IMG/VR virus record: IMGVR_UViG_3300017971_000214
Location: 62,261-126,260 of that record
Direction: 5' to 3' (one strand)
DNA length: 64,000 nucleotides
Origin: a virus
Shown here one piece after another: positions 44,718 through 62,531 of the stretch; position 1 is the stretch's first letter, and every line of letters starts with the position of its first letter. The notes beneath the pieces are model-generated. The model saw nothing but the letters and a program-made list of their open reading frames with translations. It had not been told where the DNA came from and did no database searches. A program made the translations under genes and the position numbers.

Positions 44718-46550
44718 GTGGGATTCTTCTCCAACATAGCCAACAGGATCAGATCAGCCTGGACCAAAGACAAGGAACAGGTTGCGATCCAACTCGCCAA
44801 GGGAGCCACGGCCGCAGGCTACCCGGCGACGGGCTACGACATTCTTCAGGCTTACGGCTATGAGGTCGTGGCCGACTACCTTCGGCTGGAGCAAGACCTG
44901 CTCGCGAGGTACGTCGACTACGAGGAGATGGACGACTACCCGGAGATCAGCGCGGCCATCGACATCTTCGCGGACGACGCGACTCAGCCGGACACGCAGC
45001 TCAACCGAACGGTGTGGGTGACCTCTCCCAACCAGAACATTCAGACGACGCTGGACGACATGCTCAACAAGCGTCTGAGGATCGACGAGGAGATTTGGGA
45101 GATCGCTAGGACCATCGTCAAGTACGGCAACGACTTCGAGGAGCTGTTGGTCACGGGCGAGGGCGTGGTCGGTTTGAACTACCTTCCGCCTCCTACCGTG
45201 CGGCGCATCGAAGGCCCTCGCGGCGAGCTGTACGGCTTCATCCAGGACTTCGAGGGCCGCTTCGGCTGGTCCCCCGAGGACTTCAAGACGATCCTTGCCA
45301 AGCGCACGGCCGCTATCCAGGCGAGCCAGTTCCAGGGCGCCATTGACGCCGCATCCATGCCGGCTGTGGCGGCGTTGGAGGACTGGGAGGTGGTGCACTT
45401 CCGCCTGCGCGGCAAGCACCGCCGGAGCATCTACGGCTACTCGGTACTGGAAGCGGCCCGATGGATCTGGAAGCGGCTCATGCTTCTGGAGGACTCGGCA
45501 CTCATCTACCGCCTGCAGCGGGCGCCTGAGCGCTACGCTTTTTACGTGGACGTGGGCAATCTTCCGGCTCCTGAAGCCTTGGCTTACGTCAACCGCGTTC
45601 GGCAGCAGTACCGAAAGAGGAAGTACGTCAACCCGTCCACGAACAAGCTCGACCTGCGGTACGACGCGCTGTCTCCGGACGAGGACTTCTTCTTGCCTAC
45701 GAGGCAGGGGCAGGAAGGAACGAGGATCGATGTCATCAGCTCGCCCCAGTGGCAGCACATGGACGACATCGAGTATTTCCAGAACAAGCTGTTCTCTTCG
45801 ATCAAGATCCCGAAGGCGTACTTGGCTCAGGACGACAACACGGCTCGGTCTGTGCTGTCTTCGGAGGACGTTCGGTTCGCCCGTACCGTGATGCGCATCC
45901 AGCGCGAACTTCGCAACGGGATGCGGAAGATGTGCCGCGTTCACTTGGCGGCCATCGGCGTCGACCCGCATCAGCAAGAGTACGAGGTGAACATGACTGT
46001 TCCCTCGTCGATCTTCGAGCTAGCGCAGTTGGAAGTTCGGAATGCTCGCGCCGACCTAGCTTCTCGGATGCGGGAGTTCATGTCGTTGTACTGGGTCTAC
46101 AAGAATGTGTTCGACCTAAGCGACGAGGAGATCAAAGCCATCGAGGCTCAGCGGGAAAGCGATCAGGAGAACGAGGCGGTGTGGGGAGCCCGTGCCGAGA
46201 TGGCAGCTCAGAAGGAACAGGGGGGCGCCGAGGGCGAAGGCGAGGGCGGAGGTGGGGGAGCCCCCCCAGGGATGTTTGCGGGGTCCGAGCCCCCGACTGG
46301 CGCCGAGATGAAGCTCATTCGCGACTCTCGCCAGCTCGCCCGACGTTTGAACGGGGGCCGACGCTCGTCTCTTCTGAGCCCTGTTCGACGAGGATCCGAA
46401 AGGGAACTGATGGCGGGCAGGAACACCGAGGCGGAGAAGAGGGCGGCGGACAAGTTGGAGCGTCTTCTTCGCAACGACGTGGCCCTGAAAAGGTCTTTGA
46501 ACGAATTGGGGTCGTTGGTGCGTGATCTCGCTCGATCCCCAAGGCGTTAG
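44718..46550 (+). CDS. portal protein, T4 gp20-like
   Basis: EDSALIYRLQRAPER..FYVDVGNLP, EDFFLP, DDIEYFQNKL, EDVRFAR. Confidence 0.92.
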   Translation: MGFFSNIANRIRSAWTKDKEQVAIQLAKGATAAGYPATGYDILQAYGYEVVADYLRLEQDLLARYVDYEEMDDYPEISAAIDIFADDATQPDTQLNRTVWVTSPNQNIQTTLDDMLNKRLRIDEEIWEIARTIVKYGNDFEELLVTGEGVVGLNYLPPPTVRRIEGPRGELYGFIQDFEGRFGWSPEDFKTILAKRTAAIQASQFQGAIDAASMPAVAALEDWEVVHFRLRGKHRRSIYGYSVLEAARWIWKRLMLLEDSALIYRLQRAPERYAFYVDVGNLPAPEALAYVNRVRQQYRKRKYVNPSTNKLDLRYDALSPDEDFFLPTRQGQEGTRIDVISSPQWQHMDDIEYFQNKLFSSIKIPKAYLAQDDNTARSVLSSEDVRFARTVMRIQRELRNGMRKMCRVHLAAIGVDPHQQEYEVNMTVPSSIFELAQLEVRNARADLASRMREFMSLYWVYKNVFDLSDEEIKAIEAQRESDQENEAVWGARAEMAAQKEQGGAEGEGEGGGGGAPPGMFAGSEPPTGAEMKLIRDSRQLARRLNGGRRSSLLSPVRRGSERELMAGRNTEAEKRAADKLERLLRNDVALKRSLNELGSLVRDLARSPRR

Positions 46551-47558: not shown

Positions 47559-48953
47559 ATGGCACTCAGGCACCCTGTTGTGATCACCCCGCTGGAAGAA
47601 GATCTGAAGAGGATCGGTCTCCTACGGGAGCAAGACGATGAAGAGCCCGCCCCCGAGCCCGATCCCGAGGGCGGCTACGCCGAGATGGGCGACGAGACTC
47701 CGGAAGACGAGCCGGACAAGCCCATGGGTGAGCAGGCTGATGACGAAGAGCCTGCGCCTGAGCCTGACCCCGAGGGCGGCTATGCCACCGAGGAAGAGGG
47801 AGAGGACGACGAGGACGACGAGGACGCCGCCGTGGAGGCCATCGGCACGTTGGCGGGCCACTTCCTCGCGCAGCATCAGGCGATCGGCCCGAAGCCTGCC
47901 GGCGCCGTGGCTGAGGGCAAGCCCGCGCAGCGCGGTCGCCCCCTGCACGAGTCCAAGGCGCAGAGGGTGCAGCGTCTCGCGACGGGCAACCTGTTCGGTG
48001 GTTCTCCGAAGCGCGCTCCCGAGCCCACCAATCGGGTGACGGCTCTGCTGGAGGAAGTTTCCGACATCGTCGGTGACATCCACCGCTCTCGCAAGGAGGA
48101 GCAGATCAAGGGCTTCGCGAACATCGCCGTGATTGCCGACACGCTGGCCTCGCGGTTCAGTGATTGGGGCATGGCGCTGAGCGAGGGCAACCTCTACCGC
48201 GTCGGCGCCATGATGAAGAAGCTCTCCGAGCAGTCGGCCGACATGGCCGTCAAGCTCGACACTCCTCCGGGTGAAGAAGACCCCGAGATGGAGATGGACG
48301 AGCCTCCGATGGACGACGAGCCCGAAGATGCCGCCGCCATGGAGCAGGAAGGTGGCGACGACGCGAAGGTCGATGAGCTGTTCAAGAAGTTCATGGCCAA
48401 GCTGCTCGACGCGCTGCAGCTCTACAACGACGTGACCGGCAAGTCCGAGAGCGACGAAGAGCTTCCTGGCGACGACAAGGAAGACAGCGTGGACGACGCC
48501 GACATGGACGACGACGATGACGCGGCCGAGAACGACCCCGAGATCGACGACGCCGACATGGGCGAGATGGACGACGAGCCCGCGCTCGACGACGAGCCCG
48601 ACGACCCCGACATGGAGTCCGGCGAGATCCCTCCGGGCATCAAGACCTCCGAGACCGACCCTGAGGGGGACGATGACGAGGACGAAGAACCCATGGGCGA
48701 GCAGGAAGGCGATGACGAGGAAGGCGATGACGAGGGAGGCGACGAGAAGGACCCTCCCTACGGCGTGGGTGCCGAGGAGTCAGCCATTTCCGAGGCCCGC
48801 AAGCGCCTGACGGCGATGAAGAAGAAGCTCACGGCCAAGAAGAAGGGCAAAGGCAAGAAGGTCCTGAAGGGTGGCAAGGGCAAGCTGCAGGACGGACTCC
48901 CTTTCGTGCACACGACGAAGGGCAAGCCGGGGGCGAAGAAGAAGAGGAAGTAG
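47559..48953 (+). CDS. highly acidic prohead core/scaffold-like protein with a Lys-rich tail
   Basis: Asp/Glu-rich, duplicated DEEPAPEPDPEGGYA, position equivalent to T4 gp67/68; AGGAG RBS. Confidence 0.65.
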   Translation: MALRHPVVITPLEEDLKRIGLLREQDDEEPAPEPDPEGGYAEMGDETPEDEPDKPMGEQADDEEPAPEPDPEGGYATEEEGEDDEDDEDAAVEAIGTLAGHFLAQHQAIGPKPAGAVAEGKPAQRGRPLHESKAQRVQRLATGNLFGGSPKRAPEPTNRVTALLEEVSDIVGDIHRSRKEEQIKGFANIAVIADTLASRFSDWGMALSEGNLYRVGAMMKKLSEQSADMAVKLDTPPGEEDPEMEMDEPPMDDEPEDAAAMEQEGGDDAKVDELFKKFMAKLLDALQLYNDVTGKSESDEELPGDDKEDSVDDADMDDDDDAAENDPEIDDADMGEMDDEPALDDEPDDPDMESGEIPPGIKTSETDPEGDDDEDEEPMGEQEGDDEEGDDEGGDEKDPPYGVGAEESAISEARKRLTAMKKKLTAKKKGKGKKVLKGGKGKLQDGLPFVHTTKGKPGAKKKRK

Positions 48954-49135
48954 ATGAAGCCTGGCGTGCTCGCCGGACTGCGTACCGGTCGGGCCGCCTG
49001 GAGCTGATAGGCTTCGAGAAGGACGTCAAAGATCCGCCGAACAAGAGGAAGCACCGACTGACCAAGGGACTGAGGAACCGCTCCGCGATTTGGGCCACCC
49101 CTTTCCGGAGCAACTTTCGCTGGCGAGTTCACTGA
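48899..49135 (+). other. start-less 76-codon frame reachable by -1 frameshift at C_CCT_TTC
   Basis: heptamer 48899-48905 is in phase; -1 frame is open to a TGA overlapping the protease ATG; GC3-rich codons. Confidence 0.55.
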
Positions 49136-50745
49136 TGCGCATCGAGCTGACAGAAGAAGCACAACCCGGACCGGGCCAGACGTGGCTGGTGGACTCCCTT
49201 CCCATCGCTCTCCAATTGGTGGAAGATGGCACGGACGGCGGCCGAGTCGTCGTCCGTGGGGAGTTTGCCAGGTCGGGTCAGGCGACCGAGAACAAGCGCA
49301 TCTACCCCGAGTCGTTGTGGGAGAGGGAGGTTCGACGTCTCGCTCCCATGATGACGGAGAAGAAGCTCTTCGGTGAGTTGGACCACCCCAACGACGGGCG
49401 GACCCAACTCACTCGGGTGTCTCACATCGTTACCGGGATGTCGATCACCGACTCCGGGCACGTGATGGGGGAGGCTGAGGTTCTTGACACTGCGCGTGGC
49501 AAGGATCTCAAAGCGATGCTGAAGGCTGGCTGCAAGGTCGGTGTCAGCTCTCGGGGCTACGGATCCACGCGCACCAACGACAAGGGCGAGGAAGTGGTCC
49601 AGGAAGACTACAACCTCGTGACTTTCGATTTCGTTGCCGAACCGGCAGACAGCACTGCGTACCCTGACGTATTCAGCGAGGACAAGGAGACGGGCATGGG
49701 CACTCAAGCTCAGAGGGAAGACGACCAGGCCAAGGCCAAGGCATTCGCTGCCAAGGTGGAGCAGGAAGCGCAGGCGCAAGCCGGGGCTGAGGACTTGAAG
49801 AGGCAGTTCGAGCAGGACATCCTGGCGAATCTCGGCAAACTCTCCGCGGAGCAGCGAGAGAAGATCAAGTCCGAGATGATGTCGGACCCGGCGGTGGCCG
49901 GGGCGAAGGACGTCGTCGAGAAGATCATTGGCTTGCTGAAGCCTTTCCTCTCCGAGAAGTGTGAGGGGGAGGACGGCGACGACGAAGAAGGCGGCGAGGA
50001 GATCGAGTCCCTTCGGAAGCAGGTCAAGGAGCAGGAGCTGAAGCTCGCCGAGGCACATCAGGAGATCGAGCAGCTGTCGGGCCTGGCGCGCGAGGCGGGA
50101 TACAAGTTCTACCTGGAGAGGGCGCTGTCGGAGAACCCGGACCGCCCCCTGGTGATGAAGCTCATCGGCGATCTCAAGCAGTACGAGAACGCGGACGCGC
50201 TGAAGTCGAAGCTGGAGGGCATCCTCGGCGAGATGAAGGCGCGACGCGAGGAAGAGGCTGCCAGGCAAGCCGAGGTCGAGCAGCGGGAAGAGGAGATCCG
50301 CAAGGCTGCCGAGGCAGAGCGGAGCCGGTCGCAGCAGGTGGAGTCCGAGCTGAAGGACAACGTCAACAAGCTGACCGAGGCGCTGGAGAAGGCGTTGGAG
50401 GCGAACAAGGTCATGGGCCTTCAGCTCTACGCCGAGCAGCGCTTGGCCGGGCATCCTCAGAAGAAGACCATCATGCGTCTGGTCGAAGCCGCGGGGGCTG
50501 AGACCAAAGATCAGGTGGAAGAGATCATTGCAGAGAACCGCGAGGTCCCCCGCGACACCGACGACTTGGAGTCCATTCGGGCTCGGGTGCGTCGTGTGAC
50601 GCAAGGCGGGCGCGGCTCTACCCCCGCAGAGGAAGAGACTCCTAGGCCGGCCGCGCGTCGTGCACTGCAGGAGGACAACTACAACGGGCTCGGGGTGGAC
50701 ATCAGCACTCTGCAGCAGCTTTCGGGCATGCGTAGGGACAACTGA
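49135..50745 (+). CDS. prohead protease (T4 gp21-like) fused to a coiled-coil scaffold (gp22-like)
   Basis: NKRIYP, GELDHP, VSHIV, GVSSRGYGS, FDFVAEP; long coiled-coil C-terminal half. Confidence 0.9.
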   Translation: MRIELTEEAQPGPGQTWLVDSLPIALQLVEDGTDGGRVVVRGEFARSGQATENKRIYPESLWEREVRRLAPMMTEKKLFGELDHPNDGRTQLTRVSHIVTGMSITDSGHVMGEAEVLDTARGKDLKAMLKAGCKVGVSSRGYGSTRTNDKGEEVVQEDYNLVTFDFVAEPADSTAYPDVFSEDKETGMGTQAQREDDQAKAKAFAAKVEQEAQAQAGAEDLKRQFEQDILANLGKLSAEQREKIKSEMMSDPAVAGAKDVVEKIIGLLKPFLSEKCEGEDGDDEEGGEEIESLRKQVKEQELKLAEAHQEIEQLSGLAREAGYKFYLERALSENPDRPLVMKLIGDLKQYENADALKSKLEGILGEMKARREEEAARQAEVEQREEEIRKAAEAERSRSQQVESELKDNVNKLTEALEKALEANKVMGLQLYAEQRLAGHPQKKTIMRLVEAAGAETKDQVEEIIAENREVPRDTDDLESIRARVRRVTQGGRGSTPAEEETPRPAARRALQEDNYNGLGVDISTLQQLSGMRRDN

Positions 50746-50793
50746 GGTCGACGGACGGGCACAGCGAGAACGAGAGATACCAAGGAGATAACA

Positions 50794-52293
50794 ATGGGCA
50801 CCGAAGCTCGACAGATCCTCAACGAAGACGCGCGGCGAACCGTGGCCGACAAGAGCTACGTCGGCGCGCTGGTACGGAAGTGGCGGGAGTTCCTGGAGGG
50901 ACTTCCGGAGCGCACCGAGCAAGACCGCTACACGCTCGGCGTCACGGCCGTTCTCATGGAGAACGAGTCGCAGTACCTGCAGAACCTCAACGAAGAGACG
51001 CGGACGGTCAACGTCGGCAGCTTCACGAAGTTCATCTTTCCGGTTCTGCGCCGCGTTTTCCCGAACCTGATCGCCAACGAGATCGTCTCGGTTCAGCCGA
51101 TGACGGCTCCGGTCGGTGCGGTCTTCTTCCTGGACTACGTCTACGGCACCACCAAGGGTGCGACGACGGCCGGCAACCTCTTCCCCCGCGATTTCGATCG
51201 CGACTACTCCTCGGAGTACATCAACGGGGAGGCGCTGGTCACCGGCGACGCCACCAACTACGGTGGTGGTGGAACCGCTCTGACGGCGACCCTGGCGTTC
51301 ACGCCGGTTCGTCCGCTGGATGCCTCTCGGGGCTACAGCGTGGTCGTCAGCGAGATCAACGCGACCACGGGCGCGGTCGTTCAGACGGCGACCGATGACG
51401 GCGCGGGTGGCTTCACCGGTGCGGTCTCGGCCGGAACGATCAACTACTCGAACGGCGCCATCACCGGCTTCCTGTTCACCAACCCGCCCGCCACGGGCAA
51501 TCAGGTCAAGGCGTACTACTACTACGACGGCGAGCTGAACACCCAGGTTCCGCAGATCAACCTGGATGTCAAGAAGGCTCCCGTCGAGGCAGTGCCGCGG
51601 CGTCTGAAGGCTCTGTGGTCCGCCGAGGCCGCGGAAGACCTCCGCGCTTTCCACGGCGTCGATGCCGAGACCGAGATGGTCTCCGCCATCGCGCAGGAGA
51701 TCGCACTGGAGATCGACCGCGAGATCATCCAGCAGCTGTTCGCGTCCTCCACAGGCACGACCGGCACGTTCGACCGGGTTCCCCCGGCCGGCATCAACGA
51801 GCTGGATCACCTGCGGGCGCTGATCACCACGATCAGCACCGTGTCCAACCTCATCCACAAGAAGACGCTGCGCGCGCCGGCCAACTGGATCGTCACCTCC
51901 CCCGAGGTCTCGGCCCTGCTGACCCAGCTCACCACGCACGGCGACTTCCGACCGCTGTGGGTCTCGGGCGGCGAGAGCCCCTACGGCCCGGTGGACGCAC
52001 CGCGTCCGCTCACGCAGCACGGGCAGTTCTCGATCTACAAGGTCGGGACGCTCATGAACAAGTGGCTCGTGTACGAGGATCCATTCTTCACCTCTGACCA
52101 GATGCTCATCGGCCTGAAGGGCGCGAGCTACCTGGACAGCGGTTTCGTGTGGGCTCCCTACATCCCGCTGCAGGTCACCCCGACCTTCCTCGATCCGAAC
52201 GACTTCTCGTTCCGCAAGGGTCTCCGCACGCGCTACGCGTCGAAGATGCTGCGCAGCGAGTTCTACGGATCCGTCAGGATTCAGAACCTCTGA
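50794..52293 (+). CDS. major capsid protein, T4 gp23-like
   Basis: VQPMTAPVG, RRLKALWS.EAAEDLRAFHGVDAE, EIDREII, WAPYIPL, GLRTRY. Confidence 0.95.
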   Translation: MGTEARQILNEDARRTVADKSYVGALVRKWREFLEGLPERTEQDRYTLGVTAVLMENESQYLQNLNEETRTVNVGSFTKFIFPVLRRVFPNLIANEIVSVQPMTAPVGAVFFLDYVYGTTKGATTAGNLFPRDFDRDYSSEYINGEALVTGDATNYGGGGTALTATLAFTPVRPLDASRGYSVVVSEINATTGAVVQTATDDGAGGFTGAVSAGTINYSNGAITGFLFTNPPATGNQVKAYYYYDGELNTQVPQINLDVKKAPVEAVPRRLKALWSAEAAEDLRAFHGVDAETEMVSAIAQEIALEIDREIIQQLFASSTGTTGTFDRVPPAGINELDHLRALITTISTVSNLIHKKTLRAPANWIVTSPEVSALLTQLTTHGDFRPLWVSGGESPYGPVDAPRPLTQHGQFSIYKVGTLMNKWLVYEDPFFTSDQMLIGLKGASYLDSGFVWAPYIPLQVTPTFLDPNDFSFRKGLRTRYASKMLRSEFYGSVRIQNL

Positions 52294-61967: not shown

Positions 61968-62531
61968 ATGGCCCGTCCCGCAAGCACTGACTTCATGCAC
62001 GCGATGCGCTTCCACGTCGTGGTTCTCGGCACGAACGCCGAGGAGTACCTGACGGGCGGAGCCGCTTACGCTGACCCGAACATGGCGATCCCGCAAGCGG
62101 GCTTCACCACGTGTTCGATCCCCGAGCTGTCGATCGAGTCGGTGGAGTACAAGGAAGGCACCTTCATCTACCCCCGTAAGTACCCCGGCAACCCGGCGGT
62201 GAGCGACTGCTCCTTCGCGCGAGGCGTGACTCGGGACGACAGCTCGTTCTGGCAGTGGGCGAAGAACTCCGTGGAGGGTTCGGGTGGCGGTGTCGAGTAT
62301 CGCTTGGACATGGACATCAAGCACTACCACCGCGACCAGATCCTCCCGAACGCGCAGGGCCAGATCGCCAACGTCGAGAATGTCGTTCCCGGACGGACCT
62401 ACCGCATCTACGAGTGCTTCCCCATCCGGTGCAAGCCGGCCGGAGACCTCGATGCGACTTCGTCCGAGATCTCCATCCAGGAGATGGACGTCGCCGTCGA
62501 GCGCATCGACGCCACGAACGGCAACTTCTAG
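61968..62531 (+). CDS. tail tube protein, T4 gp19-like
   Basis: AGF..CS.PE, EYKEG, KYPG, RGV, DLDATSSEISI. Confidence 0.92.
   Translation: MARPASTDFMHAMRFHVVVLGTNAEEYLTGGAAYADPNMAIPQAGFTTCSIPELSIESVEYKEGTFIYPRKYPGNPAVSDCSFARGVTRDDSSFWQWAKNSVEGSGGGVEYRLDMDIKHYHRDQILPNAQGQIANVENVVPGRTYRIYECFPIRCKPAGDLDATSSEISIQEMDVAVERIDATNGNF

Follow-up and report, generated by a model that had tools for sequence, protein, structure and literature searches.

A start-less -1 reading frame behind an acidic head-assembly gene of uncultured T4-like viruses and its probable expression by ribosomal frameshifting

Introduction

Conserved frameshifts in phages make up a short list, mainly tail chaperones together with a few capsid genes. 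In phage lambda, the slippery heptamer of the G/GT pair is of the G_GGA_AAx type, and in phage T7, a -1 shift at the end of head gene 10A/10B yields a minor, C-terminally extended form. The retroviruses mouse mammary tumor virus (MMTV) and human T-cell leukemia virus (HTLV) use a double -1 frameshift for gag-pro-pol. Here we analyze a 64,000-nucleotide stretch of viral DNA (the window; positions 62,261 to 126,260 of IMG/VR record IMGVR_UViG_3300017971_000214), in which an acidic head-assembly gene, a reading frame that has no start codon, and the prohead protease gene follow one another. We conclude that the acidic gene very probably undergoes programmed -1 ribosomal frameshifting at a C_CCT_TTC heptamer (48899-48905) near its 3' end and that the protease is made from its own ATG.

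In mechanism and logic, the proposed shift resembles lambda G/GT, but it would act in a gene of the head interior and add a domain of a new kind. As in lambda and its counterparts in other tailed phages, the proposed -1 shift lies near the 3' end of an assembly gene, at G_GGA_AAx-type heptamers in many relatives; a minority long form would gain a further domain at its C-terminus; divergent sequences retain a common layout; and a strong stimulatory structure is often absent. The analogy is not exact because lambda G/GT belongs to the tail module and its parts are non-homologous to those here, whereas our system concerns the head interior and has an extension that is free-standing in some lineages. 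For the lambda G/GT-type frameshift, a ratio of 30:1 is given in the available text of PMC5009743. T7 extends its major capsid protein, whereas here an acidic, non-shell protein would gain a conserved basic domain. In phage T4, the genes for gp67, which has an acidic tail, and gp68, which has a basic C-terminal part, lie between portal gene 20 and protease gene 21, a position matching that of the acidic/tail pair studied here, but they are two separate genes without a frameshift, in contrast to the overlapping frames of our locus. Both T4 products are described as minor core proteins degraded by gp21 in the available text of PMC9958956. The likeness to gag-pro-pol, finally, is superficial and goes no further than the tandem of identical in-phase heptamers in this single genome; unlike its retroviral counterpart, the second site here lacks conservation and is not required, and the protease starts from a codon of its own. 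Our literature searches, which covered articles without their supplementary files, found no frameshift described in prohead-core or scaffold genes, and the examined text of the recoding review PMC5009743 contains neither "scaffold" nor "prohead."

Results

In the window, the acidic ORF (open reading frame) ends with TAG at 48951-48953, and 15 codons before this stop it reads CTC CCT TTC. The first letter of C_CCT_TTC thus falls on codon position 3, which places the heptamer in phase, and TTC is codon 449. No other X_XXY_YYZ heptamer occurs, in any phase, within the 1395-nucleotide (nt) gene; in the genes around the site, CCT accounts for 22% of Pro codons and GGA for 11% of Gly codons. The -1 frame, which we call the hidden frame, spans 134 open codons (48731-49132), of which 76 follow the heptamer. 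It contains no ATG, GTG, or TTG anywhere and closes with a TGA (49133-49135) that overlaps the protease ATG (49135-49137). The original prediction had described just this arrangement, an in-phase heptamer leading into a start-less frame of 76 codons that ends in TGATG on the protease start, and all of its elements are present. Its product sizes likewise agree with arithmetic on the coordinates (464 amino acids (aa) unshifted, 525 (449 + 76) after one shift, and 1062 (449 + 67 + 546) after two), and the AAG-rich end of the 0 frame does read as Glu-rich in the -1 frame, as the proposed exchange of poly-Lys for poly-Glu supposes. Stop-codon reassignment was considered and rejected: the stop of the acidic gene is TAG, TGA, or TAA depending on the relative, and readthrough of the window TAG would retain the wrong frame and meet a stop 17 codons on.

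Relatives of the locus were assembled from three sources: a first set of six viral relatives found via the protease (45-69% identity), a wider scan of viral contigs with the basic peptide of the hidden frame as query (93 relatives, 80 kept), and a second wider scan with the protease as query, which is unbiased with regard to the peptide (83 relatives, 80 kept). In all, 169 sequences were examined, and the loci with the peptide number 86 once identical regions are removed. The apparent gap between the acidic and protease genes, 181 nt in the window, is 154-202 nt in all six first relatives, and the hidden-frame peptide EAWRxRRTAYxSGRxExxGF…FRWRxH/Y is conserved in all seven loci (window and first relatives); in the first relatives its end coincides with the protease start or slightly precedes it. 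The linker (48905-48955) shows no sequence conservation among relatives. A hidden Markov model (HMM) of the peptide matches 154 of the 169 sequences, 86 of them unique. In the unbiased sample, the peptide stands directly before the protease in 66 of the 77 protease-found loci that have upstream DNA, and most of the remaining 11 carry weak matches in the same place.

The pattern of variation in the peptide is that of a protein. Across 71 aligned peptides, nucleotide entropy at codon positions 1, 2, and 3 is 1.16, 0.96, and 1.64, the third being the most variable; an invariant Ser is encoded by TCN in 23 sequences and by AGY in 48; and at invariant Arg residues all six codons are in use. Because both Ser codon families and all six Arg codons occur and position 3 varies, the gap segment is, to judge from these alignments, under selection on its amino acid sequence and not on RNA or a promoter. 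The three antisense frames are each open in only some of the loci (37, 26, and 20 of 71). Within the window, the G+C content at third codon positions (GC3) of the hidden frame is 0.75, compared with 0.58 and 0.54 in the other two frames, and resembles that of the neighboring genes (0.72-0.88). The codon usage had been called coding-like from the letters of the window; both this measure and the conservation across relatives bear that description out.

The hidden frame lies in the -1 frame of a long upstream ORF in 71 of the 86 unique loci, and these 71 were used for the heptamer counts; three further loci have the -1 layout with an upstream ORF that the end of the contig truncates. With the upstream gene set instead by an HMM of the acidic protein (67 of 85 relatives), the hidden frame is -1 to it in 63 of 67. 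In 52 of the 71 loci, the final 75 nt of the acidic gene include at least one in-phase X_XXY_YYZ heptamer. This interval holds 61 heptamers in phase versus 5 and 4 in the other two phases, and all 61 fall inside the stretch where the -1 frame is open. In the bodies of the same genes, which served as a control, the counts by phase are 20, 15, and 5 in 42.5 kb, and the in-phase density is about 27-fold higher at the gene 3' end. The type of heptamer varies by lineage: G_GGA_AAC (28), G_GGA_AAA (11), C_CCT_TTC (8), and a few others. In-phase C_CCT_TTC is found not only in the window but also in L005, L006, L068, L131, L135, L136, and L161, and G_GGA_AAC or G_GGA_AAA takes the role of the site in most other relatives. 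Many lineages have the stop directly after the heptamer or one codon later, and in four loci (L019, L049, L071, and L078) the -1 frame opens just 13 nt before the end of the stop, a stretch that is G_GGA_AAC. When relatives are clustered by protease identity, a site is present in 20 of 35 clusters at 65% and in 37 of 57 at 80%. The first heptamer, which the original prediction had called well supported, is thus conserved as an in-phase site, although not as one string.

Indeed, the slippery sites do not go back to a single inherited sequence: the heptamer type switches within protease-identity clusters. Relatives that share the window's cluster have G_GGA_AAA, within a Lys-Gly-Lys-Gly context, where the window reads G_GGC_AAA (window 48843-48852 against 3763-3772 of L001, in a low-complexity alignment). 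This looks like site turnover, in which the older site would have been lost and C_CCT_TTC gained 48 nt downstream.

Neither protein part belongs to a named family. The tail has no Pfam or PHROG family, and none of 64 extension peptides has a PHROG. AlphaFold2 models the tail alone as mostly coil, with a mean predicted local distance difference test score (pLDDT) of 63, a weak model. A profile search of 1.84 billion representative proteins returned 57 matches, nearly all of 36-135 aa and with the domain at the C-terminal end. The acidic protein matches no Pfam or PHROG family; its 24 database homologues, besides the window's own entry, are all unnamed or "hypothetical," and the ESM Atlas places both the acidic protein and the tail in unnamed clusters only, with recognition under a useful level. 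The acidic protein has no match to PF17634 at E <= 0.01, and hhalign finds no similarity between the tail alignment and T4 gp68 (probability 0.2). The label "core protein" first given to the acidic gene is a positional one, the searches having detected no homology to either T4 gp67 or T4 gp68.

The letters at the site appear to be right. An assembly indel had been named as one danger to the prediction, and contigs of four runs contain zero inserted or deleted letters there. Logan contigs of two runs, possibly the window's own source, are identical to the window, and the independent wetland run X3 contains a 95-99% variant that spans 48767-49300 without gaps and with the first heptamer intact. 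Its substitutions fall at third positions of the 0 frame upstream (48851 and 48872) and at third positions of the hidden frame downstream (48970 and 49102).

Downstream of the site, the 45 nt in relatives have a mean folding z of -1.24, with z < -2 in 18 of 53. Hairpins stand directly downstream of the site in several clades, including the group of L028, L048, and L052, with z down to -3.7. A GGGCTC…GAGCCC hairpin begins 8-9 nt after C_CCT_TTC in L131, L135, L136, and L161; in one clade the hairpin has an extended stem, GGCTCC/GGAGCC, and the window is without such a hairpin. We claim no consensus hairpin for the G_GGA_AAC...KGGSW clade, where only four weak pairs were found in an imperfect alignment.

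The virus record from which the window comes has 126,260 nt and an estimated completeness of about 68%. The window forms its 3' half, has a G+C content of 62%, and carries nearly all of its genes on the + strand. Table 1 gives the features of the locus. The Portal_T4, Peptidase_S77, and Gp23 domains are present in the T4-type order (gp20, gp21, gp23), in agreement with the T4-like head module first proposed. No close cultured phage was found, the best identity of the major capsid protein being below 38% (about 35%) across 2592 matching records. The capsid protein is much better conserved than the protease-scaffold protein in the overlapping sets of relatives compared: capsid identity to the window is 71-92% (L001, L003, L004, L005, and L007), and that of the protease-scaffold protein is 38-69% (L001-L007).

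Table 1. Coordinates of the head-gene locus, numbered from the first letter of the window
Feature	Position	Strand	Basis and remarks
Portal gene	44718..46550	+	Pfam PF07230 Portal_T4, E 1.2e-74; context
Gene of unknown type, 325 aa, between portal gene and acidic gene			
Acidic head-assembly ("core-like") gene	47559..48953	+	ORF list; 0-frame product 464 aa, Lys-rich end
Slippery heptamer C_CCT_TTC, in phase, proposed -1 site	48899..48905	+	Sequence; shared with relatives
Predicted transframe linker, -1 frame, RAHDEGQAGGEEEEEVD	48905..48955	+	Translation; overlaps 0-frame Lys-rich tail and stop
Start-less basic extension domain in the -1 frame, EAWRARRTAYRSGRLELIGF...TPFRSNFRWRVH	48956..49132	+	Alignments of relatives; conserved
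Second C_CCT_TTC heptamer	49099..49105	+	Judged coincidence; codons of conserved Thr-Pro-Phe motif
TGATG, extension ORF stop overlapping protease ATG	49133..49137	+	Ordinary stop/start overlap
Prohead protease (S77) and scaffold-like coiled-coil region, own ATG	49135..50745	+	Pfam PF03420, E 1.9e-16; PHROG 207
Major capsid protein gene	50794..52293	+	Pfam PF07068 Gp23, E 2.2e-74; context

Discussion

The extension frame is under selection at the protein level, has no start, and lies -1 to the acidic gene in most relatives; near the 3' end of that gene an in-phase heptamer is retained, of a type and at a position that differ by lineage. The conserved coding frame, its -1 relation to the upstream gene, and the enrichment of in-phase heptamers strongly support the first shift, with its 464-aa and predicted 525-aa products, as a family-wide programmed frameshift; that the shift actually occurs we infer from sequence comparison. 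In the mechanism that we propose, most ribosomes would end at the 464-aa protein with its Lys-rich end, and a minority would re-pair tRNA-Pro (CCU to CCC) and tRNA-Phe (UUC to UUU) one base back. Shifted ribosomes would then read a 17-residue Glu-rich linker followed by the 59-residue basic domain, and the 525-aa long form would terminate at the TGA overlapping the start of the protease. Translation of the protease-scaffold gene would begin at its own ATG through ordinary stop/start coupling, with no second shift involved.

Functionally, the frameshift may fix the ratio of short to long forms of a protein of the prohead interior. Because the tail is predicted to be unstructured alone, we propose that it is a peptide for docking or anchoring, whose partner would be DNA or some further component of the prohead, a role akin to that of the T part of lambda gpGT, which gives a subset of gpG a second binding activity. 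At the window site, re-pairing of UUC to UUU would be cognate in the A site, a property that marks the most efficient bacterial shift motifs according to the abstract of PMC4066793. Because no convincing stimulatory structure lies downstream in the window, we infer that the efficiency of the shift there is probably low, a few percent.

Several observations weigh against this interpretation. First, no significant structure follows the window heptamer (z -0.39; a second estimate is +0.97), although a stimulatory structure 5-9 nt after the heptamer is a common, if not obligatory, part of -1 frameshift sites. Second, contigs from RNA libraries end at 48901 and resume at 48908, which leaves the heptamer unbridged. 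Third, related sequences are among those counted, so that the heptamers do not each represent an independent event, and 19 of the 71 loci of the -1 type are without a classical heptamer; some of these have their own ATG or GTG, and others only C_CCT_ACC-like strings. Fourth, the basic domain can work unfused. Many of the database matches are small ORFs that stand alone, in some of which the initial Met lies at the motif itself, and P0003, P0004, P0009, P0026, and P0030 are standalone genes with Met and a short N-terminal extension. At least five unique loci (L023, L034, L081, L083, and L151) encode the domain after the stop with its own start, an ATG about 20-65 nt before the peptide match, and L002 has a GTG and L009 an ATG right at the motif. 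Fifth, no in-frame fusion to an acidic protein occurs among the 57 profile matches, and the domain is absent from the 5 acidic homologues examined out of the 25 listed. A separate candidate, transcriptional slippage, is judged unlikely because the site is without a long homopolymer; the RNA contigs, as said, leave it unbridged.

The fourth and fifth points bear above all on the possibility that the hidden ORF in the window is a separate small gene, translated by reinitiation or from a non-canonical start, with no fusion protein being made. Such independent translation is favored mainly by the ability of the domain to act without fusion. The window, however, offers no suitable start. In addition to the absence of ATG, GTG, and TTG from the whole open frame, there is no CTG, ATT, or ATA before the conserved EAWR, so that a start at a non-canonical codon of its own, one of the outcomes that the prediction itself had named as refuting it, was not found; canonical starts before the conserved motif are likewise missing from five of the six first relatives. 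The only nearby ATG, at 48954, is out of frame. It directly follows the TAG, stands behind GAGGA, and opens a 17-codon ORF in the 0 frame (48954-49007), which shows no conservation among relatives and arises as a side effect of how the hidden frame encodes Asp-Glu. Moreover, a separate gene leaves unexplained both the 27-fold in-phase enrichment of heptamers and the opening of the -1 frame exactly at the heptamer. For the window we consider independent translation quite unlikely; among relatives, the distribution of starts and sites suggests that the module switches between a frameshift-fused and a separate-gene state.

A second alternative extends frameshifting further. The original prediction held that a double -1 shift, in the style of retroviral gag-pro(-pol), would give a 1062-aa fusion of acidic protein, extension, and protease, and the window does contain what this requires, namely a second, identical heptamer in phase with the hidden frame and a protease frame that is already open upstream of its ATG. 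The comparison with relatives speaks otherwise. The second heptamer is absent from all six first relatives, and in the last 72 nt of the hidden ORF across 84 loci, heptamers number 9 in phase versus 8 and 5, which is no enrichment; the original caution that this site could be chance was well placed. Relative to the hidden frame, the protease is offset by -1 in 51 of the 84 loci and by +1 in 21, and it shares the frame in 12; the excess of the -1 offset is explained by a TGATG-type 1-nt overlap, common in this group (36 of 84); the protease start codon lies within -1 to +2 nt of the hidden-ORF stop in 59 of 84. The heptamer itself arises from the codons of a conserved Thr-Pro-Phe motif, and in the X3 variant a T>C change at 49102 turns CCT into CCC, which keeps Pro and destroys the heptamer. 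Finally, protease residues 28-176 match positions 31-187 of the S77 profile, and the N-terminus is therefore complete from the ATG at 49135. A TTG at 49090, 45 nt upstream, would extend the protease ORF to 551 aa, but its use is unlikely because relatives align from the ATG.

Given an unconserved second site, a variable offset, and a protease with its own ATG, the gag-pro analogy is not supported; we regard the double-shift model as largely refuted and its truth as very improbable. With the second shift unsupported, the proposal that recoding sets a core:protease stoichiometry also falls, and what remains is the ratio of short to long forms of the acidic protein. As for an artefact, we give virtually no credence to an assembly indel that split one gene or to a frame open by chance at 62% G+C, for although long spurious ORFs are common here (for example, one of 963 aa in antisense at 49129-52020), the two-frame layout recurs in 71 unique contigs from many samples, the four runs are free of indels, and the hidden frame is under selection at the amino acid level. 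The 963-codon minus-strand ORF, which lies over the protease and capsid genes, is a high-G+C shadow ORF and not a gene.

Among the -1-type loci that lack a classical heptamer, C_CCT_ACC or C_CCT_ATC beside the stop, or C_CCT_TCY, occurs in L004, L021, L045, L074, L076, L126, and L085 (in the last 3-6 codons) and in L014, L066, and L073. Strings of the C_CCT_ACC type may allow a slip on tRNA-Pro in the P site alone. A broader idea, which we advance tentatively and rather doubt, is that the tail is an unrecognized, widespread prohead module of an uncultured T4-superfamily clade that passes between free gene and frameshift, with the heptamer-less lineages using a new, selected tRNA-Pro P-site slip. 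If this were true, selection would be maintaining, at C_CCT_ACC or C_CCT_TCY, a bacterial shift site of a novel type.

More generally, the conserved phage frameshifts, few as they are, would gain a member from the head interior. Gene callers miss the segment, either taking it as a gap, as over the 181 nt in the window, or calling it from a spurious internal start, and a conserved head protein domain is therefore absent from phage annotation. With their interchangeable slippery sites and their fused or unfused domains, the relatives also provide a natural series for studying why phages set protein ratios by recoding. One member of the series, L008, is a 3,960-nt contig in a metagenome-assembled genome labeled Bacteroidales; it carries the same acidic gene, a G_GGA_AAA site, the tail, and the protease, and is probably a phage fragment binned into a bacterial genome.

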